Source: Heptranchias perlo (taxonomy: Eukaryota). From it: DNA of 64,000 nucleotides. This document shows, piece by piece, positions 11,093 through 60,424 of this stretch. The notes below the pieces were generated by a model, which saw only the letters and a program-made list of their open reading frames with translations, searched no databases and had not been told where the DNA came from. Position numbers and translations under genes: made by a program. The stretch covers positions 4,154,001 to 4,218,000 of the forward strand of contig NW_027139581.1 of NCBI RefSeq assembly GCF_035084215.1, given 5' to 3'. Position 1 is the stretch's first letter. The number at the start of each line of letters is the position of its first letter.

Positions 11093-11729
<637 letters not shown>

Positions 11730-25113: not shown

Positions 25114-26012
25114 TTATTTAATAAATTTAACAATTCCAGTAAAGGGATATTTCACCACATTCTTCAACTCCTCTCTGAATTTAGTCTGGGTCACGGCATA
25201 AATACACGTGTTGGTGCAGCAACTCAGGAGCTGGAGCATAAATCCCAGTTCTTGTACGTATTGAGGTAGATACACAGGAATAAAGTCTAACCCATATAAT
25301 CGGTACCATACAAAAAACAACAGAAACACCGCCCATAACAGGATAAAATTCCCCGATATAACAAACAGTAAAATGATGGATTTCCTTCTCTTCTCCATCT
25401 CTGGGTCACTGGGACTCTCCCCACTGCTGTGGGCCCGGAGTCTCCTGCGGACTCTGCTCGACACTAAAATGTGTCTGACGGTTAAAGCATTGAGCAGCAG
25501 AATCAGAACAAATGGAACAAATGGTGTTACAATATAATGAAGGAATTCAATTACTGCCCACACCTGTGAATCCAGAACATCCAATGATACAAAACAAAAC
25601 CAGGGAGAATTACGAATCCAATATTCACCTCCAAGCATAAAGTACCAGAAAGTGTTCTTCACACAGAACAGCACACTCACTGTTCCCAGAACCACAGCCG
25701 CCGTTTTCTCGGTGCAATATTTTGTTTTCAGCTTCTGGAAACAAATGGCCACAAATCGATCAAAGGTGAAAGTGACTGTGAACCAGACAGAACAGTCTGT
25801 GGCTGCGTAAAGCAGGACGGCGTGGATATTACACACTTTAAAGTTCCACATGAACATAAATTGAGTCCAATAAAGAATAGGAATTTGCCTGAATATCAGA
25901 TCAGTGATAACGACCAGTAGATCCGCCGCTGCCATGGACACCAGGTAACGGGTGACACATTTGGAGAGACCACATCTTCCTCGAGACAGGATCACAATCG
26001 TCACTAAGTTCA
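25114..26012 (-). CDS. GPR139/GPR142-like class A GPCR, exon 2 (second half of TM1 to C-terminus)
   Basis: 299 open codons with 7TM hydrophobicity: MAAADLL (TM2), Cys at start of TM3, TFDRFVAIC (DRY variant), SCCTNTCIY (NPxxY variant). Acceptor tttttcttcctgacag|TG, phase 1. Confidence 0.92.
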
Positions 26013-26569
26013 CTGTCAGGAAGAAAAACAGGGAATTATACTTCAGACTGAGATTAAAAGCAGCAGACTGGTCGAATTCAGGGTGAAATGTTCAATTATT
26101 ATTGAATCCAGGGACAGAATCTTATTCCTTTACCTGTGAAAGAACTTTCTGCTCTGTAGAGGGTTTATTGTAAAACACCGCCCTGGTGTAGCAGGAAACC
26201 AAAACCACCAGCAGGTCCCAGCTCCAATCCAGGGCCTGTACTGGGTCGGCAGTTCGAAGCTCCAATGGCCTCAATGACCTTGTGTTTGGAGGGAAATCGG
26301 ACAGGGTTCCTCGTCCTGGTCACAGTCCTGTGACCCTGCTGGGAACTGCGCATGTCTGGACGATGGATGAACATATTTGGACTGGGCTGTGATTCCCTCC
26401 GAGGGGAAATTGTTCCATTTTTAAAATGACCATCTGAAAACAGGAAAGTCTTGTATTTGTATCACGCCTTTCACGAACTCAGAATGTCCCAAAGCGCTTC
26501 ACAGCCAATGGATTAGTTTTGAAGTGTGATTCAATCAATAATTAATTTCACTGCAATTTGCACCATACA

Positions 26570-26761
26570 GCTGCTTCAACAAACATCCCAAGGAACTTCA
26601 CAGAGGCGTGAGGAAAATGGACGTCAAGCCAAAGAATGAGAGATTCGGAGCAGTGAGGGAAAGCTTGGGTGTGAAGGAGGGTCTTAAAGGGGGAGAGGGA
26701 GGTGGAGAGGATGAAATGTTCTAGGAGAAAATTTCAGAGCGTGAGACGTCCGCGGCTCAAT
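26570..26761 (-). mobile_element. L2 3' end, left flank of the 54-bp array
   Basis: aaggagggtcttaaagggggagagggaggtggagagg is the reverse complement of the L2 3' region at 22405-22450 and 59410-59470. Confidence 0.7.
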
Positions 26762-29700
26762 TCACGGTCACCACTGGTGGAGTGAAGGGAGAGGAGGATG
26801 GACAAGAGACTGGAGTCACGGTCACCACTGGTGGAGTGAAGGGAGAGGAGGATGGACAAGAGACTGGAGTCACGGTCACCACTGGTGGAGTGAAGGGAGA
26901 GGAGGATGGACAAGAGACTGGAGTCACGGTCACCACTGGTGGAGTGAAGGGAGAGGAGGGTGGACAAGAGACTGGAGTCACGGCCTTCATTGGTGGAGTG
27001 AAGGGAGAGGAGGGAGGACAAGAGACTGGAGTCATGACCACCACTGGTGGAGTGAAGGGAGAGGAGGATGGACAAGAGACTGGAGTCACGGCCACCACTG
27101 ATGGAGTGAAGGGAGAGGAGGATGGACAAGAGACTGGAGTCACGGCCACCACTGTTGGAGTGAAGGGAGAGGAGGGTGGACAAGAGACTGGAGTCACGGC
27201 CACCACTGGTGGAGTGAAGGGAGAGGAGGATGGACAAGAGACTGGAGTCACGGCCACCACTGATGGAGTGAAGGGAGAGGAGGATGGACAAGAGACTGGA
27301 GTCACGGCCACCACTGTTGGAGTGAAGGGAGAGGAGGGTGGACAAGAGACTGGAGTCACGGCCACCACTGTTGGAGTGAAGGGAGAGGAGGATGGACAAG
27401 AGACTGGAGTCACGGCCATCACTGATGGAGTGAAGGGAGAGGAGGATGGACAAGAGACTGGAGTCACGGCCACCACTGCTAGAGTGAAGGGAGAGGAGGA
27501 TGGACAAGAGACTGGAGTCACGGCCACCACTGGTGGAGTGAAGGGACAGGAGGGTGGACAAGAGACTGGAGTCACGGTCACCACTGGTGGAGTGAAGGGA
27601 GAGGAGGGTGGACAAGAGACTGGAGTCACGGCCATCACTGGTGGAGTGAAGGGAGAGGAGGATGGACAAGAGACTGGAGTCACGGTCACCACTGGTGGAG
27701 TGAACGGAGAGGAGGGGGGACAAGAGACTGGAGTCACGGCCACCACTGGTGGAGTGAAGGGAGAGGAGGGTGGACAAGAGACTGGAGTCACGGTCACCAC
27801 TGGTGGAGTGAAGGGAGAGGAGGATGGACAAGTGACTGGAGTCACGGTCACCACTGGTGGAGTGAAGGGAGAGGAGGATGGACAAGAGACTGGAGTCACG
27901 GTCACCACTGGTGGAGTGAAGGGAGAGGAGGGTGGACAAGAGACTGGAGTCACGGCCTTCATTGGTGGAGTGAAGGGAGAGGAGGGAGGACAAGAGACTG
28001 GAGTCATGACCACCACTGGTGGAGTGAAGGGAGAGGAGGATGGACAAGAGACTGGAGTCACGGCCACCACTGATGGAGTGAAGGGAGAGGAGGATGGACA
28101 AGAGACTGGAGTCACGGCCACCACTGTTGGAGTGAAGGGAGAGGAGGGTGGACAAGAGACTGGAGTCACGGCCACCACTGGTGGAGTGAAGGGAGAGGAG
28201 GATGGACAAGAGACTGGAGTCACGGCCACCACTGATGGAGTGAAGGGAGAGGAGGATGGACAAGAGACTGGAGTCACGGCCACCACTGTTGGAGTGAAGG
28301 GAGAGGAGGGTGGACAAGAGACTGGAGTCACGGCCACCACTGTTGGAGTGAAGGGAGAGGAGGATGGACAAGAGACTGGAGTCACGGCCATCACTGATGG
28401 AGTGAAGGGAGAGGAGGATGGACAAGAGACTGGAGTCACGGCCACCACTGATAGAGTGAAGGGAGAGGAGGATGGACAAGAGACTGGAGTCACGGCCACC
28501 ACTGGTGGAGTGAAGGGACAGGAGGGTGGACAAGAGACTGGAGTCACGGCCATCACTGGTGGAGTGAAGGGAGAGGAGGGTGGACAAGAGACTGGAGTCA
28601 CGGCCACCACTGGTGGAGTGAAGGGACAGGAGGGTGGACAAGAGACTGGAGTCACGGCCACCACTGGTGGAGTGAAGGGACAGGAGGGTGGACAAGAGAC
28701 TGGAGTCACGGCCACCACTGGTGGAGTGAAGGGAGAGGAGGATGGACAAGAGACTGGAGTCACGGTCACCACTGGTGGAGTTAACGGAGAGGAGGGTGGA
28801 CAAGAGACTGGAGTCACGGCCACCACTGGTGGAGTGAAGGGAGAGGAGGATGGACAAGAGACTGGAGTCACGGCCACCACTGGTGGAGTGAAGGGAGAGG
28901 AGGGTGGACAAGAGACTGGAGTCACGGTCACCACTGGTGGAGTGAACGGAGAGGAGGGTGGACAAGAGACTGGAGTCACGGCCACCACTGGTGGTGTGAA
29001 GGGAGAGGAGGATGGACAAGAGACTGGAGTCACGGCCACCACTGGTGGAGTGAAGGGAGAGGAGGGTGGACAAGAGACTGGAGTCACGGCCACCACTGTT
29101 GGAGTGAAGGGAGAGGAGGGTGGACAAGAGACTGGAGTCACGGTCACCACTGGTGGAGTGAAGGGAGAGGAGGATGGACAAGTGACTGGAGTCACGGTCA
29201 CCACTGGTGGAGTAAAGGGAGAGGAGGATGGACAAGAGACTGGAGACACGGTCACCACTGGTGGAGTAAAGGGAGAGGAGGATGGACAAGAGACTGGAGT
29301 CACGGCCATCACTGGTGGAGTGAAGGGAGAGGAGGGTGGACAAGAGACTGGAGTCACGGCCACCACTGGTGGAGTGAAGGGAGAGGAGGGTGGACAAGAG
29401 ACTGGAGTCACGGCCACCACTGGTGGAGTGAAGGGAGAGGAGGGAGGACAAGAGACTGGAGTCACGGCCATCACTGGTGGAGTGAAGGGAGAGGAGGGTG
29501 GACAAGAAACTGGAGTCACGGCCATCACTGGTGGAGTGAAGGGAGAGGAGGATGGACAAGAGACTGGAGTCACGGTCACCACTGGTGGAGTGAAGGGAGA
29601 GGAGGGTGGACAAGAGACTGGAGTCACGGTCACCACTGGTGGAGTGAAGGGAGAGGAGGATGGACAAGAGACTGGAGTCACGGTCACCACTGGTGGAGTG

Positions 29701-32700
29701 AAGGGAGAGGAGGATGGACAAGAGACTGGAGTCACGGTCACCACTGGTGGAGTGAAGGGAGAGGAGGATGGACAAGAGACTGGAGTCACGGTCACCACTG
29801 GTGGAGTGAAGGGAGAGGAGGATGGACAAGAGACTGGAGTCACGGCCACCACTGGTGGAGTGAAGGGAGAGGAGGATGAACAGGAGACTGGAGTCACGGT
29901 CACCACTGGTGGAGTGAAGGGAGAGGAGGGTGGACAAGAGACTGGAGTCACGGCCTTCATTGGTGGAGTGAAGGGAGAGGAGGATGGACAAGAGACTGGA
30001 GTCACGGTCACCACTGGTGGAGTGAAGGGAGAGGAGGGTGGACAAGAGACTGGAGTCACGGCCACCACTGGTGGAGTGAAGGGAGAGGAGGGTGGACAAG
30101 AGACTGGAGTCACGGCCACCACTGATGGAGTGAAGGGAGAGGAGGATGGACAAGAGACTGGAGTCATGACCACCACTGGTGGAGTGAAGGGAGAGGAGGG
30201 TGGACAAGAGACTGGAGTCACGGCCACCACTGATGGAGTGAAGGGAGAGGAGGATGGACAAGAGACTGGAGTCACGGCCACCACTGTTGGAGTGAAGGGA
30301 GAGGAGGGTGGACAAGAGACTGGAGTCACGGCCACCACTGTTGGAGTGAAGGGAGAGGAGGATGGACAAGAGACTGGAGTCACGGCCATCACTGATGGAG
30401 TGAAGGGAGAGGAGGATGGACAAGAGACTGGAGTCACGGCCACCACAGATAGAGTGAAGGGAGAGGAGGATGGACAAGAGACTGGAGTCACGGCCACCAC
30501 TGGTGGAGTGAAGGGACAGGAGGGTGGACAAGAGACTGGAGTCACGGCCATCACTGGTGGAGTGAAGGGAGAGGAGGGTGGACAAGAGACTGGAGTCACG
30601 TCCACCACTGGTGGAGTGAAGGGACAGGAGGGTGGACAAGAGACTGGAGTCACGGCCACCACTGGTGGAGTGAAGGGACAGGAGGGTGGACAAGAAACTG
30701 GAGTCACGGCCACCACTGGTGGAGTGAAGGGAGAGGAGGATGGACAAGAGACTGGAGTCACGGTCACCACTGGTGGAGTGAACGGAGAGGAGGGTGGACA
30801 AGAGACTGGAGTCACGGCCACCACTGGTGGAGTGAAGGGAGAGGAGGATGGACAAGAGACTGGAGTCACGGCCACCACTGGTGGAGTGAAGGGAGAGGAG
30901 GGTGGACAAGAGACTGGAGTCACGGTCACCACTGGTGGAGTGAACGGAGAGGAGGGTGGACAAGAGACTGGAGTCACGGCCACCACTGGTGGAGTGAAGG
31001 GAGAGGAGGATGGACAAGAGACTGGAGTCACGGCCACCACTGGTGGAGTGAAGGGAGAGGAGGGTGGACAAGAGACTGGAGTCACGGCCACCACTGTTGG
31101 AGTGAAGGGAGAGGAGGGTGGACAAGAGACTGGAGTCACGGTCACCACTGGTGGGGTGAAGGGAGAGGAGGATGGACAAGAGACTGGAGTCACGGCCACC
31201 ACTGGTGGAGTGAAGGGAGAGGAGGATGGACAAGAGACTGGAGTCACGGCCACCACTGGTGGAGTGAAGGGAGAGGAGGGTGGACAAGAGACTGGAGTCA
31301 CGGCCATCACTGGTGGAGTGAAGGGAGAGGAGGGAGGACAAGAGACTGGAGTCACGGTCACCACTGGTGGAGTGAAGGGAGAGGAGGATGGACAAGTGAC
31401 TGGAGTCACGGTCACCACTGGTGGAGTAAAGGGAGAGGAGGATGGACAAGAGACTGGAGTCACGGTCACCACTGGTGGAGTAAAGGGAGAGGAGGATGGA
31501 CAAGAGACTGGAGTCACGGCCATCACTGGTGGAGTGAAGGGAGAGGAGGGTGGACAAGAGACTGGAGTCACGGCCACCACTGGTGGAGTGAAGGGAGAGG
31601 AGGGTGGACAAGAGACTGGAGTCACGGCCACCACTGGTGGAGTGAAGGGAGAGGAGGGAGGACAAGAGACTGGAGTCACGGCCATAACTGGTGGAGTGAA
31701 GGGAGAGGAGGGTGGACAAGAGACTGGAGTCACGGCCACCACTGGTGGAGTGAAGGGAGAGGAGGGTGGACAAGAAACTGGAGTCACGGCCATCACTGGT
31801 GGAGTGAAGGGAGAGGAGGGTGGACAAGAGACTGGAGTCACGACCACCACTGGTGGAGGAAAGGGAGAGGAGGATGGACAAGAGACTGGAGTCACGGTCA
31901 CCACTGGTGGAGTGAAGGGAGAGGAGGATGGACAAGAGACTGGAGTCACGGTCACCACTGGTGGAGTGAAGGGAGAGGAGGGTGGACAAGAGACTGGAGT
32001 CACGGCCACCACTGGTGGAGTAAAGGGAGAGGAGGGTGGACAAGCGACTGGAGTCACGGCCACCACTGGTGGAGTGAAGGGAGAGGAGGATGGACAAGAG
32101 ACTGGAGTCACGGCCACCACTGGTGGAGTGAAGGGAGAGGAGGATGGACAAGAGACTGGAGTCACGGTCACCACTGGTGGAGTGAAGGGAGAGGAGGATG
32201 GACAAGAGACTGGAGTCACGGCCACCACTGGTGGAGTGAAGGGAGAGGAGGGAGGACAAGAGACTGGAGTCACGGCCATAACTGGTGGAGTGAAGGGAGA
32301 GGAGGGTGGACAAGAGACTGGAGTCACGGCCACCACTGGTGGAGTGAAGGGAGAGGAGGGTGGACAAGAAACTGGAGTCACGGCCATCACTGGTGGAGTG
32401 AAGGGAGAGGAGGGTGGACAAGAGACTGGAGTCACGACCACCACTGGTGGAGGAAAGGGAGAGGAGGATGGACAAGAGACTGGAGTCACGGTCACCACTG
32501 GTGGAGTGAAGGGAGAGGAGGATGGACAAGAGACTGGAGTCACGGTCACCACTGGTGGAGTGAAGGGAGAGGAGGGTGGACAAGAGACTGGAGTCACGGC
32601 CACCACTGGTGGAGTAAAGGGAGAGGAGGGTGGACAAGCGACTGGAGTCACGGCCACCACTGGTGGAGTGAAGGGAGAGGAGGATGGACAAGAGACTGGA

Positions 32701-35700
32701 GTCACGGCCACCACTGGTGGAGTGAAGGGAGAGGAGGATGGACAAGAGACTGGAGTCACGGTCACCACTGGTGGAGTGAAGGGAGAGGAGGATGGACAAG
32801 AGACTGGAGTCACGGTCACCACTGGTGGAGTGAAGGGAGAGGAGGATGGACAAGAGACTGGAGTCACGGTCACCACTGGTGGAGTGAAGGGAGAGGAGGG
32901 AGGACAAGAGACTGGAGTCACGGTCACCATTGGTGGAGTGAAGGGAGAGGAGGGTGGACAAGAGACTGGAGTCACGGCCATCACTGATGGAGTGAAGGGA
33001 GAGGAGGATGAACAAGAGACTGGAGTCACGGTCACCACTGGTGGAGTGAAGGGAGAGGAGGGTGGACAAGAGACTGGAGTCACGGTCACCACTGGTGGAG
33101 TGAAGGGAGAGGAGGGAGGACAAGAGACTGGAGTCACGGCCATCACTGATGGAGTGAAGGGAGAGGAGCGTGGACAAGAGACTGGAGTCACGGCCACCAC
33201 TGGTGGAGTGAAGGGAGAGGAGGATGGACAAGAGACTGGAGTCACGGCCACCACTGGTGGAGTGAAGGGAGAGGAGGATGGACAAGAGACTGGAGTCACG
33301 GCCACCACTGGTGGAGTGAAGGGAGAGGAGGGTGGACAAGAGACTGGAGTCACGGCCATCACTGGTGGAGTGAAGTGAGAGGAGGGAGGACAAGAGACTG
33401 GAGTCACGGTCACCACTGGTGGAGTGAAGGGAGAGGAGGATGGACAAGTGACTGGAGTCACGGTCACCACTGGTGGAGTAAAGGGAGAGGAGGATGGACA
33501 AGAGACTGGAGTCACGGTCACCACTGGTGGAGTAAAGGGAGAGGAGGATGGACAAGAGACTGGAGTCACGGCCATCACTGGTGGAGTGAAGGGAGAGGAG
33601 GGTGGACAAGAGACTGGAGTCACGGCCACCACTGGTGGAGTGAAGGGAGAGGAGGGTGGACAAGAGACTGGAGTCACGGCCACCACTGGTGGAGTGAAGG
33701 GAGAGGAGGGAGGACAAGAGACTGGAGTCACGGCCATCACTGGTGGAGTGAAGGGAGAGGAGGGTGGACAAGAGACTGGAGTCACGGCCACCACTGGTGG
33801 AGTGAAGGGAGAGGAGGGTTGACAAGAAACTGGAGTCACGGCCATCACTGGTGGAGTGAAGGGAGAGGAGGGTGGACAAGAGACTGGAGTCACGACCACC
33901 ACTGGTGGAGGAAAGGGAGAGGAGGATGGACAAGAGACTGGAGTCACGGTCACCACTGGTGGAGTGAAGGGAGAGGAGGATGGACAAGAGACTGGAGTCA
34001 CGGTCACCACTGGTGGAGTGAAGGGAGAGGAGGGTGGACAAGAGACTGGAGTCACGGCCACCACTGGTGGAGTAAAGGGAGAGGAGGGTGGACAAGCGAC
34101 TGGAGTCACGGCCACCACTGGTGGAGTGAAGGGAGAGGAGGATGGACAAGAGACTGGAGTCACGGCCACCACTGGTGGAGTGAAGGGAGAGGAGGATGGA
34201 CAAGAGACTGGAGTCACGCTCACCACTGGTGGAGTGAAGGGAGAGGAAGATGGACAAGAGACTGGAGTCACGGCCACCACTGGTGGAGTGAAGGGAGAGG
34301 AGGATGGACAAGAGACTGGAGTCACGGTCACCACTGGTGGAGTGAAGGGAGAGGAGGATGGACAAGAGACTGGAGTCACGGTCACCACTGGTGGAGTGAA
34401 GGGAGAGGAGGATGGACAAGAGACTGGAGTCACGGTCACCACTGGTGGAGTGAAGGGAGAGGAGGGAGGACAAGAGACTGGAGTCACGGTCACCACTGGT
34501 GGAGTGAAGGGAGAGGAGGGTGGACAAGAGACTGGAGTCACGGCCATCACTGATGGAGTGAAGGGAGAGGAGGATGAACAAGAGACTGGAGTCACGGTCA
34601 CCACTGGTGGAGTGAAGGGAGAGGAGGGTGGACAAGAGACTGGAGTCACGGTCACCACTGGTGGAGTGAAGGGAGAGGAGGGAGGACAAGAGACTGGAGT
34701 CACGGCCATCACTGATGGAGTGAAGGGAGAGGAGGGTGGACAAGAGACTGGAGTCACGGCCACCACTGGTGGAGTGAAGGGAGAGGAGGATGGACAAGAG
34801 ACTGGAGTCACGGCCACCACTGGTGGAGTGAAGGGAGAGGAGGGTGGACAAGAGACTGGAGTCACGGCCACCACTGCTGGAGTGAAGGGAGAGGAGGGAG
34901 GACAAGAGACTGGAGTCACGGCCATCACTGATGGAGTGAAGGGAGAGGAGGGTGGACAAGAGACTGGAGTCACGGTCACCACTGGTGGAGTGAAGGGAGA
35001 GGAGGGTGGACAAGAGACTGGAGTCAGGGCCACCACTGCTGGAGTGAAGGGAGAGCAGGATGGACAAGAGACTGGAGTCACGACCACCACTGCTGAAGTG
35101 AAGGGAGAGGAGGATGGACAAGAGACTGGAGTCACGGCCATCACTGGTGGAGTGAAGGGAGAGGAGGATGGACAAGAGACTGGAGTCACGGCCACCACTG
35201 GTGGAGTGAAGGGAGAGGAGGGAGGACAAGAGACTGGAGTCACGGCCACCACTGGTGGAGTGAAGGGAGAGGAGGGTGGACAAGAGACTGGAGTCACGGT
35301 CACCACTGGTGGAGTGAAGGGAGAGGAGGATGGACAAGAGACTGGAGTCACGGCCATCACTGGTGGAGTGAAGGGAGAGGAGGATGGACAAGAGACTGGA
35401 GTCACGGCCATCACTGGTGGAGTGAAGGGAGAGGAGGGTGGACAAGAGACTGGAGTCACGGTCACCACTGGTGGAGTGAAGGGAGAGGAGGGTGGACAAG
35501 AGACTGGAGTCACGGCCATCACTGGTGGAGTGAAGGGAGAGGAGGATGGACAAGAGACTGGAGTCACGGCCATCACTGGTGGAGTGAAGGGAGAGGAGGA
35601 TGGACAAGAGACTGGAGTCACGGCCATCACTGGTGGAGTGAAGGGAGAGGAGGGTGGACAAGGGACTGGAGTCACGGTCACCACTGGTGGAGTGAAGGGA

Positions 35701-38700
35701 CAGGAGGGTGGACAAGAGACTGGAGTCACGGCCACCACTGGTGGAGTGAAGGGAGAGGAGGGTGGACAAGAGACTGGAGTCACGGTCACCACTGGTGGAG
35801 TGAAGGGAGAGGAGGATGGACAAGAGACTGGAGTCACGGTCACCACTGGTGGAGTGAAGGGAGAGGAGGGTGGACAAGAGACTGGAGTCACGGCCACCAC
35901 TGGTGGAGTGAAGGGAGAGGAGGATGGACAAGAGACTGGAGTCACGGTCACCACTGGTGGAGTGAAGGGAGAGGAAGATGGACAAGAGACTGGAGTCACG
36001 GCCACCACTGGTGGAGTGAAGGGAGAGGAGGATGGACAAGAGACTGGAGTCACGGTCACCACTGGTGGAGTGAAGGGAGAGGAGGATGGACAAGAGACTG
36101 GAGTCACGGTCACCACTGGTGGAGTGAAGGGAGAGGAGGATGGACAAGAGACTGGAGTCACGGTCACCACTGGTGGAGTGAAGGGAGAGGAGGGAGGACA
36201 AGAGACTGGAGTCACGGTCACCACTGGTGGAGTGAAGGGAGAGGAGGGTGGACAAGAGACTGGAGTCACGGCCATCACTGATGGAGTGAAGGGAGAGGAG
36301 GATGAACAAGAGACTGGAGTCACGGTCACCACTGGTGGAGTGAAGGGAGAGGAGGGTGGACAAGAGACTGGAGTCACGGTCACCACTGGTGGAGTGAAGG
36401 GAGAGGAGGGAGGACAAGAGACTGGAGTCACGGCCATCACTGATGGAGTGAAGGGAGAGGAGGGTGGACAAGAGACTGGAGTCACGGCCACCACTGGTGG
36501 AGTGAAGGGAGAGGAGGATGGACAAGAGACTTGAGTCATGGCCACCACTGGTGGAGTGAAGGGAGAGGAGGATGGACAAGAGACTGGAGTCACGGCCACC
36601 ACTGGTGGAGTGAAGGGAGAGGAGGGTGGACAAGAGACTGGAGTCACGGCCATCACTGGTGGAGTGAAGGGAGAGGAGGGAGGACAAGAGACTGGAGTCA
36701 CGGTCACCACTGGTGGAGTGAAGGGAGAGGAGGATGGACAAGTGACTGGAGTCACGGTCACCACTGGTGGAGTAAAGGGAGAGGAGGATGGACAAGAGAC
36801 TTGAGTCACGGCCACCACTGGTGGAGTAAAGGGAGAGGAGGATGGACAAGAGACTGGAGTCACGGCCATCACTGGTGGAGTGAAGGGAGAGGAGGGTGGA
36901 CAAGAGACTGGAGTCACGGCCACCACTGGTGGAGTGAAGGGAGAGGAGGGTGGACAAGAGACTGGAGTCACGGCCACCACTGGTGGAGTGAAGGGAGAGG
37001 AGGGAGGACAAGAGACTGGAGTCACGGCCATCACTGGTGGAGTGAAGGGAGAGGAGGGTGGACAAGAGACTGGAGTCACGGCCACCACTGGTGGAGTGAA
37101 GGGAGAGGAGGGTGGACAAGAAACTGGAGTCACGGCCATCACTGGTGGAGTGAAGGGAGAGGAGGGTGGACAAGAGACTGGAGTCACGACCACCACTGGT
37201 GGAGGAAAGGGAGAGGAGGATGGACAAGAGACTGGAGTCACGGTCACCACTGGTGGAGTGAAGGGAGAGGAGGATGGACAAGAGACTGGAGTCACGGTCA
37301 CCACTGGTGGAGTGAAGGGAGAGGAGGGTGGACAAGAGACTGGAGTCACGGCCACCACTGGTGGAGTAAAGGGAGAGGAGGGTGGACAAGCGACTGGAGT
37401 CACGGCCACCACTGGTGGAGTGAAGGGAGAGGAGGATGGACAAGAGACTGGAGTCACGGCCACCACTGGTGGAGTGAAGGGAGAGGAGGATGGACAAGAG
37501 ACTGGAGTCACGGCCACCACTGGTGGAGTGAAGGGAGAGGAGGATGGACAAGAGACTGGAGTCACGGTCACCACTGGTGGAGTGAAGGGAGAGGAGGATG
37601 GACAAGAGACTGGAGTCACGGTCACCACTGGTGGAGTGAAGGGAGAGGAGGATGGACAAGAGACTGGAGTCACGGTCACCACTGGTGGAGTGAAGGGAGA
37701 GGAGGGAGGACAAGAGACTGGAGTCACGGTCACCACTGGTGGAGTGAAGGGAGAGGAGGGTGGACAAGAGACTGGAGTCACGGCCATCACTGATGGAGTG
37801 AAGGGAGAGGAGGATGAACAAGAGACTGGAGTCACGGTCACCACTGGTGGAGTGAAGGGAGAGGAGGGTGGACAAGAGACTGGAGTCACGGTCACCACTG
37901 GTGGAGTGAAGGGAGAGGAGGGAGGACAAGAGACTGGAGTCACGGCCATCACTGATGGAGTGAAGGGAGAGGAGGGTGGACAAGAGACTGGAGTCACGGC
38001 CACCACTGGTGGAGTGAAGGGAGAGGAGGATGGACAAGAGACTGGAGTCACGGCCACCACTGGTGGAGTGAAGGGAGAGGAGGGTGGACAAGAGACTGGA
38101 GTCACGGCCACCACTGCTGGAGTGAAGGGAGAGGAGGGAGGACAAGAGACTGGAGTCACGGCCATCACTGATGGAGTGAAGGGAGAGGAGGGTGGACAAG
38201 AGACTGGAGTCACGGTCACCACTGGTGGAGTGAAGGGAGAGGAGGGTGGACAAGAGACTGGAGTCAGGGCCACCACTGCTGGAGTGAAGGGAGAGCAGGA
38301 TGGACAAGAGACTGGAGTCACGACCACCACTGCTGAAGTGAAGGGAGAGGAGGATGGACAAGAGACTGGAGTCACGGCCATCACTGGTGGAGTGAAGGGA
38401 GAGGAGGATGGACAAGAGACTGGAGTCACGGCCACCACTGGTGGAGTGAAGGGAGAGGAGGGAGGACAAGAGACTGGAGTCACGGCCACCACTGGTGGAG
38501 TGAAGGGAGAGGAGGGTGGACAAGAGACTGGAGTCCCGGTCACCACTGGTGGAGTGAAGGGAGAGGAGGATGGACAAGAGACTGGAGTCACGGCCATCAC
38601 TGGTGGAGTGAAGGGAGAGGAGGATGGACAAGAGACTGGAGTCACGGTCACCACTGGTGGAGTGAAGGGAGAGGAGGGTGGACAAGAGACTGGAGTCACG

Positions 38701-41700
38701 GTCACCACTGGTGGAGTGAAGGGAGAGGAGGGTGGACAAGAGACTGGAGTCACGGCCATCACTGGTGGAGTGAAGGGAGAGGAGGATGGACAAGAGACTG
38801 GAGTCACGGCCACAACTGGTGGAGTGAAGGGAGAGGAGGATGGACAAGAGACTGGAGTCACGGCCATCACTGGTGGAGTGAAGGGAGAGGAGGGTGGACA
38901 AGGGACTGGAGTCACGGTCACCACTGGTGGAGTGAAGGGACAGGAGGGTGGACAAGAGACTGGAGTCACGGCCACCACTGGTGGAGTGAAGGGAGAGGAG
39001 GGTGGACAAGAGACTGGAGTCACGGCCACCACTGGTGGAGTGAAGGGACAGGAGGATGGACAAGAGACTGGAGTCACGGCCACCACTGGTGGAGTGAAGG
39101 GAGAGGAGGATGGACAAGAGACTGGAGTCAGTGCCACCACTGGTGGAGTGAAGGGAGAGGAGGGTGGACAAGAGACTGGAGTCACGGTCACCACTGGTGG
39201 AGTGAAGGGAGAGGAGGATGGACAAGAGACTGGAGTCACGGCCACCACTGGTGGAGTGAAGGGAGAGGAAGGTGGACAAGAGACTGGAGTCATGGTCACC
39301 ACTGGTGGAGTGAAGGGAGAGGATGATGGACAAGAGACTGGAGTCACGGTCACCACTGGTGGAGTGTAGGGAGAGGAGGGTGGACAAGAGACTGGAGTCA
39401 CGGACACCACTGGTGGAGTGAAGGGAGAGGAGGATGGACAAGAGACTGGAGTCACGGTCACCACTGGTGGACTGAAGGGAGAGGAGGGTGGACAAGAGAC
39501 TGGAGTCACGGCCACCACTGGTGGAGTGAAGGGAGAGGAGGATGGACAAGAGACTGGAGTCACGGCCACCACTGGTGGAGTGAAGGGAGAGGAGGGTGGA
39601 CAAGAGACTGGAGTCAGGGCCACCACTGGTGGAGTGAAGGGAGAGGAGGATGGACAAGAGACTGGAGTCACGGCCACCACTGGTGGAGTGAAGGGAGAGG
39701 AGGATGGACAAGAGACTGGAGTCACGGCCACCACTGGTGGAGTGAAGGGAGAGGAGGATGGACAAGAGACTGGAGTCAGGGCCACCACTGCTGGAGTGAA
39801 GGGAGAGCAGGATGGACAAGAGACTGGAGTCACGACCACCACTGCTGGAGTGAAGGGAGAGGAGGATGGACAAGAGACTGGAGTCACGGCCACCACTGGT
39901 GGAGTGAAGGGAGAGGAGGGAGGACAAGAGACTGGAGTCACGGCCATCACTGATGGAGTGAAGGGAGAGGAGGGTGGACAAGAGACTGGAGTCACGGTCA
40001 CCACTGGTGGAGTGAAGGGAGAGGAGGGTGGACAAGAGACTGGAGTCACGGCCATCACTGGTGGAGTGAAGGGAGAGGAGGATGGACAAGAGACTGGAGT
40101 CACGGCCATCACTGGTGGAGTGAAGGGAGAGGAGGGAGGACAAGAGACTGGAGTCACGGCCACCACTGGTGGAGTGAAGGGAGAGGAGGATGGAGAAGAG
40201 ACTGGAGTCACGGTCACCACTGGTGGAGTGAACGGAGAGGAGGGTGGACAAGAGACTGGAGTCAGGGCCACCACTGGTGGAGTGAAGGGAGAGGAGGATG
40301 GACAAGAGACTGGAGTCACGGCCATCACTGGTGGAGTGAAGGGAGAGGAGGATGGACAAGAGACTGGAGTCACGGCCATCACTGGTGGAGTGAAGGGAGA
40401 GGAGGGAGGACAAGAGACTGGAGTCACGGCCGCCACTGGTGGAGTGAAGGGAGAGGAGGATGGACAAGAGACTGTAGTCACGGCCACCACTGGTGGAGTG
40501 AAGGGAGAGGAGGATGGACAAGAGACTGGAGTCACGGCCACCACTGGTGGAGTGAAGGGAGAGGAGGGTGGACAAGAGACTGGAGTCACGGCCATCACTG
40601 GTGGAGTGAAGGGAGAGGAGGGAGGACAAGAGACTGGAGTCACGGCCACCACTGGTGGAGTGAAGGGAGAGGAGGGTGGACAAGAGACTGGATTCACGGC
40701 CATCACTGGTGGAGTGAAGGGAGAGGAGGGAGGACAAGAGACTGGAGTCACGGCCATCACTGGTGGAGTGAAGGGAGAGGAGGGAGGACAAGAGACTGGA
40801 GTCACGGCCACCACTGGTGGAGTGAAGGGAGAGGAGGGTGGACAAGAGACTGGAGTCACGGCCATCACTGGTGGAGTGAAGGGAGAGGAGGGAGGACAAG
40901 AGACTGGAGTCACGGCCACCACTGGTGGAGTGAAGGGACAGGAGGATGGACAAGAGACTGGAGTCACGGCCATCACTGGTGGAGTGAAGGGAGAGGAGGG
41001 TGGACAAGAGACTGGAGTCACGGTCACCACTGGTGGAGTGAAGGGAGAGGAGGGTGGACAAGAGACTGGAGTCACGGTCACCACTGGTGGAGTGAAGGGA
41101 GAGGAGGGTGGACAAGAGACTGGAGTCACGGCCACCACTGGTGGAGTGAAGGGACAGGAGGGTGGACAAGAGACTGGAGTCACGGTCACCACTGGTGGAG
41201 TGAAGGGAGAGGAGGGTGGACAAGAGACTGGAGTCACGGCCATCTTTGGTGGAGTGAAGGGAGAGGAGGGTGGACAAGTGACTGGAGTCACGGCCACCAC
41301 TGGTGGAGTGAAGGGAGAGGAGGGACAAGAGACTGGAGTCACGGCCATCACTGATGGAGTGAAGGGAGAGGAGGATGGACAAGAGACTGGAGTCACGGTC
41401 ACCACTGGTGGAGTGAAGGGAGAGGAGGATGGACAAGAGACTGGAGTCACGGCCACCACTGATGGAGTGAAGGGAGAGGAGGATGGACAAGAGACTGGAG
41501 TCACGGTCACCACTGGTGGAGTGAAGGGAGAGGAGGGTGGACAAGAGACTGGAGCCACGGCCACCACTGGTGGAGTGAAGGGAGAGGAGGATGGACAAGA
41601 GACTGGAGTCACGGTCACCACTGGTGGAGTGAAGGGAGAGGAGGATGCACAAGAGACTGGAGTCACGGCCACCACTGGTGGAGTGAAGGGAGAGGAGGAT

Positions 41701-41878
41701 GGACAAGAGACTGGAGTCACGGCCACCACTGGTGGAGTGAAGGGAGAGGTGGATGGACAAGAGACTGGAGTCACGGTCACCACTGGTGGAGTGAAGGGAG
41801 AGGAGGATGGACAAGAGACTGGAGTCACGGCCATCACTGGTGGAGTGAAGGGAGAGGAGGGTGGACACGAGACTGGAT
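26762..41878. repeat. 54-bp minisatellite (GTCACGGYCACCACTGGTGGAGTGAAGGGAGAGGAGGRTGGACAAGAGACTGGA), ~280 units, intronic
   Basis: Register constant over 15.1 kb except one 3-bp deletion near 41322; higher-order blocks of 18 and 60 units. Confidence 0.98.
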
Positions 41879-42130
41879 TTACAGGAATAGAGTGTTGAGA
41901 TTGAAGGGCGGCCCGGAGTTGGTGCACGATGGGATACAGGCAGCATTGTTTTAGGTGAATTGAAGTTTACAGAAGATGGAGGATGGGAGTCCAGCCGGGG
42001 GAGTATTTTTATAATCGAGTCTGGAGGTGATAAAGATTTGAATGAGGCTTTCAAATGTTGATGTTAGGGAGGAGGCAGGTGATGTCACAGCGGCGGTCTT
42101 TGTGATGCGGAATAAATGCGGTGGGAAACA
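41879..42130 (-). mobile_element. Degraded L2 ORF2, right flank of the 54-bp array
   Basis: aatcgagtctggaggtgataaagatttgaatgaggctttca matches the reverse complement of the ETLIHAFVTSRLDY segment of the other L2 copies. Confidence 0.7.
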
Positions 42131-42149
42131 AGCGGTTTCTGCAGGCTAT

Positions 42150-42757
42150 TTGTCCTGGTATTGGTGAACTAACCCTGGGGTCCGTACTTCAAATCCCACC
42201 AACGTAAATCGTGAAATTTAATTGAAGAAATCTGGTAATTCTATCGCAAAAATAGCCATGCAAAACTGCGAAACGGTCTCTAAAACCTAACTGCATCCCA
42301 CTCTACCCAGACCGACCTACATGTAACTCCATTCCCGAATGAGTGATTGACATTTGATGCCCTCTGATGTTGTCCAGCAAGGCAGCCAATTGTAAACAAT
42401 CGCTACAAGTTTCAATGATTGCAATAAATTCAGATGGATCTGCCATCAGCGACCGAGGGATCGTAAGACTAAACCAATCTCAGTCCGTTCAGCATTTCAC
42501 AGTTCTCTTCAATAATATCTGAGAGATAGTTCTCAAGATGGACATTTGTCCTGAAGACCAGTTAAGCACAAGCCTGACATAATCGTACTCACAGAATCAT
42601 GTCAATGAGCAAACATCGCTGATTCCTCCATCTCCATCTTGTCCCACCAGCAGCATAGACCCAAAAGATGTCCAGACCAATGATACAAGGGGGCAGGGAT
42701 GGAGGAACGCAGAGTTACTGAGACAGGGAGGGGTGTAGCTCTGTTGGAAATTGAACA
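42150..42757 (+). mobile_element. Old LINE A 5' fragment (SINE-like head + APE N-terminus)
   Basis: Colinear with the reverse complement of 1900-2550: ttcaaatcccacc, cctacatgtaactcca, aagcctgacataatcgtactcacagaatcat. Confidence 0.7.
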
Positions 42758-42759
42758 CG

Positions 42760-43507
42760 CGGAGAACAATCCCAGCTTCTCCAGTCTCTCCACATAATTG
42801 AAGTCCCTTAACCCTGGTATCATTCTAGTAAATCTCCTCTCCACCCTCCCCAGGACCTTGACTTCCTTCCTGAAGCGAGATGCCCAGAATTGGACACAAT
42901 TGGACAGCTGAGGCCTGACCAGTGATTTATGACCAGTGGTTAGACAACACTTGGAGCACTGTGCGCAATTGTGGTCTCCATATTATATGAAGGGTTCAGA
43001 TGCACTGGAGAGAGTGCAAAAATAATTACAAGGATGATACCAGAACTGAGAGGACATAGTTATCAGGAAAGGCTCAACAGGCTGGGGCTCTTTTCTCGAA
43101 AAAAGGGAAGGCTGAGGGGGGACATTGTAGAGATCTTGAAAATTTTTGAGGGCTTGGTGAGGTGGACGGAGAGAAAATGTTCCCATTTGTCGCGGGGGGC
43201 TGAGGTGGATGGCGGTCAACACTGGGGGTCATAAATATAATATAGTCACCAATCAATCCAACAAGCAATTCAGGAGAAACTTATTTACCCAGAGAGTGTT
43301 TTGAATGCAGAACTTGCTACCACAAGGAATAGTTGAAGCGAATAGAATAGATGCATTTAAGGGGAAGTACATGAGGGAGAAATAAATTGAAGGATATGCT
43401 GATAGGGTGAGATGAAGTCGAATGGGAGGAGGCTCGTGTGGAGCATAAACACCGGCATAGACCAGTTGGGCCGAATGGCCTGTTTGTGAGCTGTAGTTTC
43501 TATGTAA
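42760..43507. mobile_element. Two CR1 fragments (minus ~42760-42930; plus ~42940-43507 with tail)
   Basis: RFTRMIPGLRDFNYVERLEKLGLFS; YQERLNRLGLFS. Confidence 0.8.
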
Positions 43508-44640
43508 CACAAGGATAAGAATTTTTAAATTGAGACGTTGCTCGACCGGGAGCCAATGTCGGTCAGGAAGCACAGGGGTGATGGGTGAATGGGATTTAAT
43601 GTCAGTTAGTAAACGGGCAGCAGAGTTTTGGATGAGCTCAAGTTTATGGAGGGTGGTGGGTGGGATGGCGGCCAGAAGAGCATTGGAAAAGTCGAGTTTG
43701 GAGGGAACAAAACCATGGATCAGGAATTCAGCAGAAGATGGGCTGAGGCTGGGGCAGAGACAGGCGATGTTCGGGAGGTGGAAGTAGGCGGTCTTGGTGA
43801 TGGAGAGAATATGGAGTCAGAAGCTCAGCTCAGGGTCAAACAGAACGCCTACTGGTCCGGTTCAGCCTCAGACTGTGGCCAGGGAGGGGGATGGAATCAG
43901 TTGTGAATGAACGGAATTTGTGATTGGGGCCGAAGACAATGGCTTCAGTCTTTCTAATGTTTGAATGGATGAAATTTTTGCTCATCCAGTACTGGATGTC
44001 GGACAAGCAGTGTGAGAAATCAGAGAGAGTGAAGGGGTGGAGAGAGGCGGTGGTGAGGGACAGCTGGGTGTCATTGACATGTGGAATCTGACTTTGTGTT
44101 TTCGGATGATGTCACCGAGGGTAAGCTTGAATATGTGAAATAGGAGGAGGCCAGGGATTGTTCCTTGTGGGACACCAGAGATAACGGTGTGTGGGCGGGA
44201 AGATGAATCATTGCAGGAGATTCTCTGGCCAAGCCTGGATCAAAAGGAATGGAACCAGGCGAGGGCAGTTGGAAAACGGACGAGAGGCGTTGGAGGTGGC
44301 TGGTGTGGACACCCGTGTCAAAGGCTGCAGACGGGTGGAGAAGGAAGAGGAGGGATAGTTTTCCACGGTCAGTCACATGGGATGTCTTTTGTGACTTTGA
44401 TTCGGGCCGTTTCAGTGCTGCGTCAGCGGTGGAAACCTGATTGGAGAGGTTGCTAATGCATTTGCAGGAAAGATGGGCACAGATTTTGGAAACGACAACA
44501 CGTTCAAGGAGAGGAAAGGGAGGTTGGAGATGGGGGCCGGAATTTACAAGGACCGAGGGGTCATGGATTTTTTTTTGAGGATGGGGTGATGACGGCAGAT
44601 TTGAAGAGGAGACGAGAGAGAACCGTGAATAAAAGGGTTA
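43508..44640 (-). mobile_element. Degraded L2 ORF2 fragment
   Basis: DRGKLSLLFLLHPSAAFDT, GVPQG region, HWLPVEQRLNLKIL. Confidence 0.82.
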
Positions 44641-45398
44641 ACTTTGCCCCTTTGGACATTACATTTGGACATTGTAAGTTTAAACTGCAAAGGCAGCAAT
44701 GTGCAGAAACTTTGAGAAGCTTCAGTTTTCAACAACAACTGATCTGAATGAAAGTAACGATGAGCAGAAGCTTCGAAAAGCTTCGAACTGGCTTTTGTTT
44801 CTCAAAACAACTGATCAGAACCTTAACAGATAACAACTTGGAAAAAACAATGCTGAAACAGTTAGAAACCCCTGGGAAAGACAATTCAAGTTACTTGTTC
44901 ACAGGTAACAGGAGTTTTAAGGTCTGCTGGTTATAGTTAATGACACTGATCTGTGGAAACCAGCGCTAACAGATAGGTCACCAATACACTCTGAAATATT
45001 GGACAATATCCAATAATGATTCAGCTCCAGGCAGCTGTCTTACTCTATGAACACATATTTCTGATCCGATACTAGGGTTCAGTGCAGAGAGCAGACGGCA
45101 AACTGTTCAATAAAGAGAATCGTCCACCAACATTCCTTGTGTACGAGACTCAAATAACAGGCAAATCCTAAAAAATGACCATCAGTTGAAGAAAGTCATA
45201 AAAAGGACAGACTGTTCATTGGACTGGGACCAATGAATCGGGAACTGTTCACATGTTACATGAAGGAAACAAGGTGCATTACCAGACATTGAACAAGAGG
45301 ATTACACTGAATACAATTAATAACCGGGTCTAAAGGACAAGGACAGTAAATACAGTTAAATATGGTTTACAGAATTAATTGCTGAAATAATGACTTAC

Positions 45399-45495
45399 CA
45401 GGAACACCAACAGCAGCGAGGAGCGGATAGTAAAACTTTTGTACATGATAAATTGCCCACAGAATCCGAAGCTCAGTTGGAACAAACAAGAACAT
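45399..45495 (-). CDS. GPCR exon 1 (MFLFVPTELRILWAIYHVQKFYYPLLAAVGVP + G)
   Basis: ATG 45495-45493 after an upstream in-frame stop; donor CCTG|GTAAGT; phase 1 joins exon 2 to complete TM1 (YYPLLAAVGVPVNLVTIVIL); 97+899 nt = 331 aa + stop. Confidence 0.88.
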
Positions 45496-45585
45496 GATTT
45501 CATTATCTGTGAGATCCAATGATCACTGTTTGTTCTGGAGGCAAAGCTGCATCAAACACTCTGCTGTGACGCCTTGAAAACAGTC

Positions 45586-45710
45586 CTTATTTATGGCCTG
45601 AGGGAACTCTCCAGTGAGACAATTAAACGACACATTGACATTAATTAAGGTCAGTAAACAAACAGGTCGGCTTAATCCCTCAACACCATCACTCCATATT
45701 GACAATTATA
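45586..45710 (-). promoter_or_regulatory. Putative GPCR proximal promoter
   Basis: TATA-like CATAAATAAG 45595-45586; O/E-like GCCTGAGGGA and TCTCCAGTGA; homeodomain TAATTG at 45620-45625 and 45703-45708; TTAATTAA 45641-45648; TAATCC 45673-45678. Confidence 0.5.
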
Positions 45711-45971
45711 GATAAACAAGCATTTTACTGATGTGACGTGAAGCTACCGAAAGTTCTGAATATTAGTAAAAGAAAATGACGTAAAAAAGAAAATATGAAT
45801 CCCGCAGTCTTACAGTGCTGATGTGAAGAGAGAGCAGCTTCACTGACAGAGTTCAGATTATTTCTGTGATATGAATTCAGCCGGCAATTTCAGAATGTTT
45901 CAAATACGTTTTCTGGGGTGGAGTAAACAAAAGTGCAAAAGACAACAAGGATAGATTGAAGCAGATCAAGT

Positions 45972-48900
45972 AATGGTCAGTCAGGATATATTGGGACTGA
46001 TAATATAATGGTCAGTAAGGATACATGGGGGCTGATAATACAATGGTCAGTAAGGATACATGGGGACTGATAATACAATGGTCAGTTAGGGTACAGGGGG
46101 ACTGATAATATAATGGTCAGTAAGGATACATTTGGTGTGATAATGCAATGTCCTGTACGGATACATGTGGGTGACAACTGAATGTTCCTCAAGGATTCTT
46201 GAATGCAGATAATGCAATGATCAGTGAGGAAACACGGGGTTTGCTAATGCAATGGTCAGAAAGAACACATTTGTATGATAATGTAACGGTCAGCATGAAC
46301 ACAGCGGAATGATAATACAGCAGTCAGGAAGAATACCTGGGGTTTATCCGACAATGGTCAGTAAGGATGCGTGGAGTGTGATACTGCCATGGTCAGTAAC
46401 TGTAAATGGGGCAGATAATATAATGATCACTAATAATGTGTAGGGGTGATAATGCAACGGTCAGCACGGATACTTGAGATGTGATAATGCAATGGTCGAT
46501 AAGGATACTTGGATGCAGATGATGCAATGGTCAATTATGATACATGGGGGTTATAATACAATGGGCAGTAAGGATACTTGGGGGCTGATAATATAATGGT
46601 CAGTAAGGAGAGATGGGATTGATAATACAATGGTCAGTAATTATACATGGGGTGTGATAATGCAATGGCAATAAGGATACATCGGTGGTAATAATACAAT
46701 GATCAGTAAAAATACACGGGGGTGATAACACAATGATCCATAATAATACACGGGGCTGATAATACACTATTCATTAAGGAAACATTGGGCCCTTAATTCA
46801 ATCGTCGGTTAGAATACATGGGATCTGACATTTACATGCTCATTTAGGATATTTTAGGCAAATAATGCAATGGTCAGTGAGGAGACATGGGGGCTGATAA
46901 TGGAGTGGTCTGTAAGAACACATGGTGGTGGTAATACAATGGTCAGTAAAGATAATTGGACACAGATATTACAATTGACAGTACGAATACATGCGAGTGA
47001 TAATGCAATGGTCAGTAAGAATACATGACGGTTCATAATACAATCGTCAGTCAGGATACATGGGATTGATAATACAGTGGTCAGTAAGTATACATGGGGG
47101 CCGATAATACAGTGGTCAGCAAGTATACATGGGGCCTGAAAATACATGGGGGCTGAAAATACAATGGCCAGTTAGTATACACGGGGGCCGATAATACAAT
47201 GGTCAGTCAGTCAAGATGGGTGCTGATAATATAATGGTCAGTAAGTATACATGGGGTCTGATATTACAATGGTCAGTAAGGATACATGGGGGCTGATAAT
47301 ATAATGGTCAGTAAGGATACATGGGGTCTGATAGTACAATGGTCAGTAAGGACACATAGGGGCTGATAATACAATGGTTTCTAAGGATGCATGGGGTCTG
47401 ATAATACGGTAGTTACTAAGGATGCATGGGGCCTGACAACACAATGGTCAGTAATTATACATGGGGGCTGATATTACAATGGTCAGTCAGGATACATGGA
47501 GACTGATAATATAATGGTCAGTAAGTATACATGGAGTCTGGATTTACAATGGTCAGTAAGTATACATGGGGGCTGATAATAAAATGCTCAGTGACTATAC
47601 ATGGGGTCTGATATTACAATGGTTAGTCAGGATACATGGGGGCTGATAATACAATGGTCAGTAAGGATACATGGGGTCTGATAATATACTGGTCAGGAAG
47701 TATACATGGGGTCTGATAATACAATGGTCAGTAAGGATACATGGGGGCTGATAATACAATGGTCAGTATGGATACATGGGGTCTGATAATATACTGGTCA
47801 GGAAGTATACATGGGGTCTGATAATACAATGGTCAGTAAGGATACATGGGGGCTGATAATATACTGGTCAGGAAGTATACATGGGGTCTGATAATACAAT
47901 GGTCAGTAAGGATACATGGGGGCTGATAATACAATGGTCAGTCACGATACATGGGGGCTGATAATACAATGGTCAGTCACGATACATGGGGGCTGATAAT
48001 ACAATGGTCAGTAATGATACATGGGGGCTGATAATACAATGGTCAGTCACGATACATGAGGGCTGATAATACAATGGTCAGTATGGATACATGGGGTCTG
48101 ATAATATACTGGTCAGGAAGTATACATGGGGTCTGATAATACAATGGTCAGTAAGGATACATGGGGGCTGATAATACAATGGTCAGTCACGATACATGGG
48201 GGCTGATAATACAATGGTCAGTCACGATACATGAGGGCTGATAATACAATGGTCAGTATGGATACATGGGGTCTGATAATATACTGGTCAGGAAGTATAC
48301 ATGTGGTCTGATAATACAATGGTCAGTAAGGATCCATGAGGGCTGATAATACAATGGTCAGTATGGATACATGGGGTCTGATAATATACTGGTCAGGAAG
48401 TATACATGGGGTCTGATAATACAATGGTCAGTAAGTATACATGGGGTCTGATAATACAATGGTCAGTAAGGATACATCGGGGCTGATAATACAATGGTCA
48501 GTAAGTATACATGAGGGCTGATAATACAATATTTACCAAGGATACATGGGGGCTGATGGTTACAAAGGATGCATGTGGCCTGAAAATATAATGGTTACGA
48601 AGGATTCATGGGGCCTGATAATTCAATGGTCAGTAAGGATGCATGGGGCCTGATAATACAATGGTTACTGAGGATACATGGGGGCCGATAATAGTGGTCA
48701 GTGTGTAGACATGGGGGCCGATAATACAATGGTCAGTAATTATCCACGGGGAGTATTAATACAATGGTCAATAAGTATACAAGGGTGCTGACAATACAAT
48801 GGCCAGTACGTATACATGGGGGCTGATAATAGAATGGCCAGTAAGTTTACACGGCGGCTGATAATTGAATGGTCAGTAAGTGTACACGGGGGCTGACAAT

Positions 48901-54296: not shown

Positions 54297-54456
54297 NNNN
54301 NNNNNNNNNNNNNNNNNNNNNNNNNNNNNNNNNNNNNNNNNNNNNNNNNNNNNNNNNNNNNNNNNNNNNNNNNNNNNNNNNNNNNNNNNNNNNNNNNNNN
54401 NNNNNNNNNNNNNNNNNNNNNNNNNNNNNNNNNNNNNNNNNNNNNNNNNNNNNNNN
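54297..54456. other. Assembly gap (160 N)
   Basis: Run of N. Confidence 1.
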
Positions 54457-60415: not shown

Positions 60416-60424
60416 TCACTTTAC
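60416..60424 (-). CDS. IGHM: IgM TM2 exon (V-K-stop)
   Basis: ccctcttttacag|GTA AAG TGA; completes the KVK cytoplasmic tail. Confidence 0.9.
   Translation of the reverse strand, partial: VK

Follow-up and report, generated by a model that had tools for sequence, protein, structure and literature searches.

A large GPR139-related receptor family of sharks and skate, seen from a locus of Heptranchias perlo, as a putative chemoreceptor repertoire

Events in which a non-sensory G-protein-coupled receptor (GPCR) was recruited for sensory use are already known. Rodent vomeronasal FPRs are a co-opted sensory repertoire that arose from a non-sensory receptor, and the TAARs and adorb, as described in the excerpts of the literature drawn on here, likewise go back to a non-sensory class A receptor that was duplicated and diversified. 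High-entropy extracellular segments also mark the class A expansions of lophotrochozoans that are regarded as candidate chemoreceptors (available text of PMC11886862). Cartilaginous fishes are said to have few GPCRs (PMC8455134, in the parts drawn on here), the whole known chemosensory repertoire of the catshark is given as 65 genes (PMC6368271, likewise in part), and a trade of discrimination for sensitivity has been invoked for sharks, with their few olfactory receptors despite large olfactory organs (available text of PMC10116579).

The receptor gene of the shark Heptranchias perlo that is described here belongs to a family that resembles these systems, in that it too is an expansion of class A receptors with high-entropy extracellular segments and would be a sensory repertoire of non-sensory origin. 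It differs from TAARs, FPRs, adorb and V1Rs/V2Rs in having another ancestral receptor, in matching only 7tm_1 in Pfam and in having a putative sensory expression, and from the lophotrochozoan expansions in being an independent, vertebrate family that is nested among vertebrate orphan genes. We read it as an undescribed and putative family of chemoreceptors whose most likely site is the microvillous olfactory neurons, and would give this reading a probability of about 0.48; the evidence at the level of the family is strong and that from the promoter modest.

The gene lies in a window of 64 kb (the 64,000 nucleotides of contig NW_027139581.1, assembly GCF_035084215.1, that were analysed) and is intact on the minus strand, with a spliced frame of 331 aa that ends in a single terminal stop (Table 1). 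The intron sits in TM1, after P32, and exon 2 matches Pfam 7tm_1 (E 3e-18) and no other Pfam family at E<=0.001. Exon 1 aligns in tblastn with the N-terminus of a Heptranchias perlo paralogue, P0005, at 81% identity over 32 aa, and exon 2 is 93-94% identical to Heptranchias P0005 and P0006; as P0005 agrees with the receptor gene in length and start and is matched by both exons, the gene model is confirmed. Furthermore, in 90 exon-1-like paralogues short starts fall most often, in 14 cases, on a Met that lies 33 aa ahead of exon 2. AF2 predicts P0005 with confidence as a 7TM bundle (pLDDT 90.8), and the best Foldseek match of this model is human GPR139 (7vug) at 23% identity.

Most of the receptor intron is occupied by a 54-bp VNTR of 280 copies (94% match, 26762-41877), which yields spurious ORFs of up to 5109 codons. 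Elsewhere in the window there are probable further zinc-finger remnants near 11385-11852 and 19962-20462, and an assembly gap in the form of a 160-base N run at 54297-54456. No second paralogue and no copy of the promoter was found in the 64 kb.

Table 1. Features of the receptor gene, its upstream region and its neighbours, in window coordinates; negative numbers are positions relative to the receptor ATG
Feature	Position	Strand	Remark
Homeodomain site TAATTG (-213)	45703..45708	-	overlaps TATA-like TATAATTG
TAATCC	45673..45678	+	motif match
Palindromic homeodomain site TTAATTAA (-153)	45641..45648	.	motif match
Homeodomain site TAATTG (-130)	45620..45625	-	adjoins distal O/E-like site
O/E(EBF)-like site, distal	45608..45619 (including 45608-45617)	.	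two overlapping 6-of-8 matches; background level
O/E(EBF)-like site	45596..45605	.	6 of 8, one perfect half site; background level
TATA-like box CATAAATA (-100)	45588..45595	-	frequent in background
Initiator-like GTCACA	45565..45570	-	28 nt past TATA-like box
Putative 5' leader	45501..45552	-	upstream ATGs at -57 (9-codon ORF) and -8
Coding exon 1	45399..45495	-	ATG at 45495; 32 codons + 1 nt, for the N-terminus and the first half of TM1
Intron, phase-1 GT-AG, 19.4 kb	26013..45398	-	GT donor at 45398, AG acceptor before 26012
Coding exon 2	25114..26012	-	remainder of TM1 through helix 8 to the stop; class A 7TM
IgH gene 3' end: last C1 domain and secretory tail	62633-63022	-	15 kb upstream of receptor
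IgH transmembrane exons	60564-60691, 60416-60424	-	same gene as C1 domain at 62633-63022
C2H2 zinc-finger gene	16343-16783	+	Pfam; downstream of receptor

The first-pass annotation had placed the receptor in a lineage-expanded, GPR139-related family and had stated that shark annotations list many GPR139-like paralogues, and both points hold. In a homologue search 2647 of 4042 candidates matched at E<=1e-3, and the best 120 matches listed are all from sharks and all named 'probable GPR139' or similar; 56 come from Heptranchias, 53 from Heterodontus and 11 from Pristiophorus, at 70-94% identity in all but one. Exon-2 cores within these 120 that are less than 95% identical to each other, and which at that divergence represent different genes and not isoforms, number 48 of the 56 in Heptranchias, 47 of the 53 in Heterodontus and all 11 in Pristiophorus. 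The matches listed are those of the nearest subfamily only and these counts are lower bounds, so that there are at least 48 distinct cores in H. perlo and at least 47 in H. francisci. A 50%-identity library gave a further view of the family, with 931 matches, 116 of them at E<=1e-30, and full-length members down to 36% identity; 44 'deep' representatives from this library are presumed to be chondrichthyan, and three weak matches from it were left out of all analyses.

Thirty of the 120 database models are without a true exon 1 and several begin in transposon-derived frames, which may hint at thin transcript support in the annotation. In the open literature, as distinct from subscription journals, we found no description of the expansion. 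It is not named in the available main text of a survey of tandem genes in rays (bioRxiv 2025.06.08.657570), and GPR139 and GPR142 are absent from the supplement files searched of PMC8455134 (12 of 24) and PMC12361510 (11 of 12).

The database name of these relatives would suggest an ordinary single-copy orthologue of GPR139 (or GPR142), that is a brain receptor for amino acids or peptides. GPR139 is indeed the closest solved receptor by both sequence and fold, which places the gene within the broad GPR139/142-related class A receptors, and the intron in TM1 may share its position with that of GPR139, presumably a two-exon gene too. However, human GPR139 scores only 45.9 bits against exon 2, at about 25% identity, when the best relative scores 456 bits; single-copy genes of Pleurodeles (125.5 bits) and Latimeria (108 bits) score higher than the human receptor, and each shark species has dozens of closer paralogues (at least 48 and at least 47 in the two species counted above). 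The gene is therefore not the single-copy GPR139 orthologue, a reading to which we attach next to no credence.

The label 'GPR139-like' is thus apt for a GPR139-related family, but the nearest bony-vertebrate relatives of the shark genes are two other single-copy orphans and not GPR139 or GPR142. The nearest of all by score (Pleurodeles P0237, which gives the 125.5-bit match, Xenopus P0393, Acipenser P0409) is a gene with one match per species in 20 amphibians and sturgeon (P0237, P0390-P0409), at about 30% identity to the receptor, and is a candidate for the bony-vertebrate counterpart of the shark family; unlike that family it is single-copy and has a conserved outer face. It is kept in frogs, salamanders, caecilians and sturgeon, and no amniote or teleost occurs among 25 matches. 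The second orphan (P0256, P0249, P0347, P0358, P0377) occurs in teleosts, sturgeon, bowfin, coelacanth, amphibians, turtles and sharks, and has in common with the shark family its relation to GPR139/142, the DRF motif and about 29% identity; it differs in not being expanded, in forming a separate clade and in lacking W6.48. It is misnamed GPR139, and no bird or mammal is found among the named matches of the 120 listed for it. Orphans called 'GPR210' appear beside GPR139/142 in Rinne et al. 2019 (available text of PMC6504862), and from the taxon lists it would be our guess that the two single-copy orphans correspond to 'GPR210' subtypes.

A tree of 41 chosen rows with two unnamed outgroups, the rows being other than named GPR139 or GPR142 sequences, nests the receptor gene with genes of Heptranchias, Heterodontus and Pristiophorus in clades supported at 97/86, 100/99 and 100/100. 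The skate Leucoraja falls inside the shark expansion, and the amphibian-sturgeon gene is its weak sister (85/57). The second orphan forms a clade of its own (100/99) with its own shark members from Scyliorhinus and Stegostoma.

Membership of the known chemoreceptor families was considered and rejected. The coding region has an intron, unlike the intronless olfactory receptors (ORs), and in Pfam matches 7tm_1 only; for V1R/ORA, V2R, TAAR and T2R it again holds that 7tm_1 is the only match at E<=0.001, and that the nearest solved relative is GPR139. Look-alikes in the Atlas are FMRFamide-receptor-like and Srw-like clusters of invertebrates.

The paralogues have diverged in a strongly one-sided manner. 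The ratio of extracellular to intracellular column entropy is 3.30 in H. perlo (p 9e-14), 2.51 in H. francisci, 2.60 across all 120 listed paralogues and 1.81 in the 44 deep representatives. Two control sets of single-copy orthologues give 1.18 (p 0.13) and 0.66, the latter for the amphibian/sturgeon gene. Nearly fixed in the 120 paralogues are ICL1 and the intracellular halves of TM2, TM3, TM6 and TM7, and hypervariable are ECL1-3 and the tops of TM6 and TM7; conserved intracellular and varied extracellular loops are the reverse of what is seen in the single-copy amphibian gene. A variable outer face with a kept G-protein face would be expected of a ligand-diversified repertoire with one signalling output, and together with the large lineage-specific repertoire gives the family, as far as sequence goes, the features of an olfactory one. 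This extracellular bias, which was not part of the first-pass annotation, speaks for chemoreception more strongly than the promoter.

In most GPCRs loops are more variable than helices, and it may be asked whether the expansion has been passive, that is a product of segmental duplication in repeat-rich Ig and zinc-finger regions followed by drift, in which case the receptors would have a redundant neural or endocrine role and the upstream motifs would be due to chance. The repeat-rich setting, with its VNTRs and LINE fragments, fits such an origin, as does the scaling of elasmobranch tandem duplication with genome size (bioRxiv 2025.06.08.657570, available text). It would nevertheless seem improbable given that the reading frame is intact, that the subclade of the receptor spans Heptranchias, Heterodontus and Pristiophorus (100/99), that the intracellular loops are strongly kept as the extracellular ones vary, and that the cluster of homeodomain sites described below has a p of about 0.002.

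In GPR139, activation by Trp/Phe needs F109, H187, W241 and N271 (available text of PMC5430874), which align with Y101, H191, W259 and F290 of the receptor. As compared with the GPR139 structures 7vug and 9m42, F3x33, H5x43 and W6x48 are kept or conservatively changed (Y101, H191 and W259), and in the 120 near paralogues these positions are occupied by Y/F (114), H (113) and W (all 120), with variation in the deep members. Unlike in GPR139, to which the identity in structural alignment is about 23-25%, N271 (N7x38) has become F290, R244 (R6x51) is F and P6.50 is V; since these three are not kept Trp/Phe agonism cannot be assumed, and amino-acid-like ligands would be a lead and not a result. 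The shark family is furthermore unlike the single-copy GPR139 in being multi-copy with a hypervariable outer face.

Two motifs that had been singled out as altered, DRF (117-119) and NTCIY (300-304), are present but are not special to the receptor gene. DRF is found in 115 of the 120 listed paralogues, F follows DR in 42 of the 43 members of a single-copy sister gene, and human GPR139 shares the lack of a proline at NPxxY; as features common to single-copy relatives or GPR139, they were rejected as marks of a chemoreceptor. The very short N-terminus that had also been remarked upon is confirmed for the receptor gene, in which it is free of sequons, but does not extend to the family: 51 of the 120 listed paralogues, from three shark genera, have a 14-residue repeat ahead of TM1, in 1 to 5 tandem copies. 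The repeat unit is mostly Met-first with an N-V-T (N-x-T) sequon, followed by a hypervariable aromatic segment, and is absent from both single-copy sister genes.

All of the motifs that the first-pass annotation described upstream of the gene (TAATTG twice, TTAATTAA, TAATCC and the O/E-like and TATA-like sites) were found at the positions claimed, and the absence of a CpG island was borne out in a region with a GC content of 40% and a CpG o/e of 0.35 that is unrepeated elsewhere in the window. Its description as an 'olfactory-receptor-style promoter' survives for the homeodomain sites and fails for the O/E-like and TATA-like sites, which are at background level. There are 3 non-redundant TAATT[AG] sites in 215 bp, palindromes being counted once, when the shuffle mean is 0.24 (p 0.0017, for a motif and window picked after the fact), and this number was reached by none of 68 unique-sequence tiles and by none of 34 that are AT-rich. 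Paired O/E-like sites at 2 mismatches, which occur in 14 of 68 tiles and in 3 of the 34 AT-rich ones (shuffle p 0.08), are not above chance, nor are TATA-like sites (19 of 68 tiles), and the 215 bp before the ATG contain no O/E site at 0-1 mismatch and no exact YYYCARRRR. Among the upstream motif classes tested against background, only the homeodomain cluster exceeds chance. We take TAATCC to be a K50-type homeodomain site. Homeodomain sites are bound by many factors, and a claim of an OR-style promoter that rests on them is therefore weak.

A candidate transcription start near 45567 is plausible from the spacing of the TATA-like box and the initiator-like GTCACA. However, the putative leader has two upstream ATGs, of which the one at -8 is out of frame and overlaps exon 1, and a CAG at -14 could serve as a splice acceptor. 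The receptor ATG is also preceded by three TGACG half sites that are CRE-like (45734-45739, 45777-45782 and 45567-45571). The unique proximal region ends at a 35-bp satellite (45971-51600), which starts 475 bp before the ATG and recurs near the start of the window, at 2561-4159, in opposite orientation. Two further ideas were tried and rejected: that the leader is a decayed copy of the 14-residue N-terminal repeat, as 389 of 476 background tiles score as high, and that the long predicted N-termini of paralogues are a read-out of upstream DNA, as 9 of 105 were matched elsewhere in the window and these mostly in transposon frames. Promoters of ORs are typified by O/E and homeodomain sites (PMC3247239) and those of V1Rs are marked by O/E-like sites (PMC3247230), as stated in the available text of both papers. 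The 215 bp before the ATG are assumed here to be the promoter and need not be, given that mouse OR start sites average 4.2 kb from the ATG (PMC3247239, same text).

The surroundings of the gene suggest another possible role, in immunity, which is the chief competitor of the olfactory reading. The family could consist of leukocyte chemoattractant or pattern-recognition GPCRs, comparable to FPR/MRGPR, that reside in duplication-prone Ig and zinc-finger regions and are perhaps under the control of EBF1 and the IgH enhancer, and EBF factors such as EBF1 also drive B-cell genes. An IgH gene, presumably of the IgW/IgNAR type rather than IgM to judge from its tail, ends upstream on the same strand and a C2H2 zinc-finger gene lies on the other side (Table 1); immune receptors would be expected to vary on their outer face just as much, and the repeat seen in 51 of the 120 listed paralogues would make a glycosylation-type N-terminal stalk. 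We nonetheless consider an immune family unlikely, as no octamer, Ets core or CASSTG E-box is found within 470 bp upstream and the one significant motif class, homeodomain sites, is not a typical lymphoid signature, and the neighbourhood may reflect shared duplication-prone chromatin only. From the literature, the spleen-specific expression of catshark or1 and or4 (available text of PMC11979771) would favour immunity, and the lack of any mention of GPR139/142 in one small supplement file of a paper on nurse-shark lymphoid tissue (PMC13007054) would count against it.

On the olfactory reading, which we prefer, the large shark-and-skate class A GPCR family descends from a GPR139/142-related orphan receptor, and each paralogue would bind its own set of water-borne ligands. 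The aromatic core of the GPR139 pocket being largely kept in the subfamily, amino acids, their derivatives and short peptides would be a first guess at these ligands, and signalling would probably run via Gi/o or Gq and PLC. Least certain are two steps, namely that expression would be sparse and in microvillous Go/TRPC2 neurons of the olfactory rosette, and that a short TATA-type promoter with clustered homeodomain (Lhx2-type) and weak O/E sites would give expression in olfactory neurons. The family would then represent unrecognised olfactory receptors alongside the V2Rs. That it is a major olfactory family of sharks and rays, larger than the V2R repertoire, which is expressed in receptor-unlabelled microvillous neurons by the same homeodomain/O-E logic as mammalian ORs and V1Rs, is put forward as a tentative and putative extension, one that may well not hold.

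The olfactory neurons of the catshark are described as all Go/TRPC2 microvillous, in an almost continuous monolayer in which ORs are unexpressed (available text of PMC10116579), and the vomeronasal analogy therefore fits better than the odorant-receptor one. In the same text, the label of v2r1, a putative co-receptor of V2Rs, is given as 5.94 cells per mm, that of taar1a as 2.76 and that of ora2 as 0.45, and four cross-reacting V2R probes label 0.7-1.1 cells per mm each. If somata measure some 10 micrometres, which is our assumption, most catshark olfactory neurons would be without an assigned receptor, a conclusion that those authors do not draw; the gap could instead reflect the sensitivity of the in situ hybridisation. 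Several OR-like genes of the catshark have their expression not in the nose but in the spleen (two of them), the stomach and the ampullae, and no GPCR is found among the 50 genes that are most abundant in and specific to brain plus olfactory tissue, V2Rs being absent too (PMC11979771, in the parts drawn on here).

Chemoreception outside the nose would fit the expansion of the family and the diversification of its outer face equally. The receptors might serve in taste buds, in solitary chemosensory cells of the skin or gill, or in enteroendocrine cells of the gut, for which it may be relevant that GPR142 has a nutrient-sensing role and that the aromatic-amino-acid pocket is partly kept. We hold such a role to be doubtful, because the homeodomain-rich proximal region suits olfactory neurons better and so large a repertoire is more usual in olfaction. 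The few taste receptors of sharks, with 6 TAS1R and no T2R in the available part of one survey (PMC6368271), and the expression of catshark v2r-like genes in scattered oral and gill epithelial cells (available text of PMC11979771), are nevertheless in keeping with extra-nasal sensing.

The family has sat hidden under one database name, 'probable GPR139'. Should it prove to be immune or gut-sensory, it would still be a large undescribed radiation of vertebrate GPCRs. If it is olfactory, a single subfamily with about 50 or more diversified members in each species would change the account of sharks as animals with few olfactory receptors, and the small olfactory repertoire of cartilaginous fishes would be an artefact of searching for the four known families only. 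Sharks may thus have many more sensors for smell, or for other chemical cues, than has been thought.
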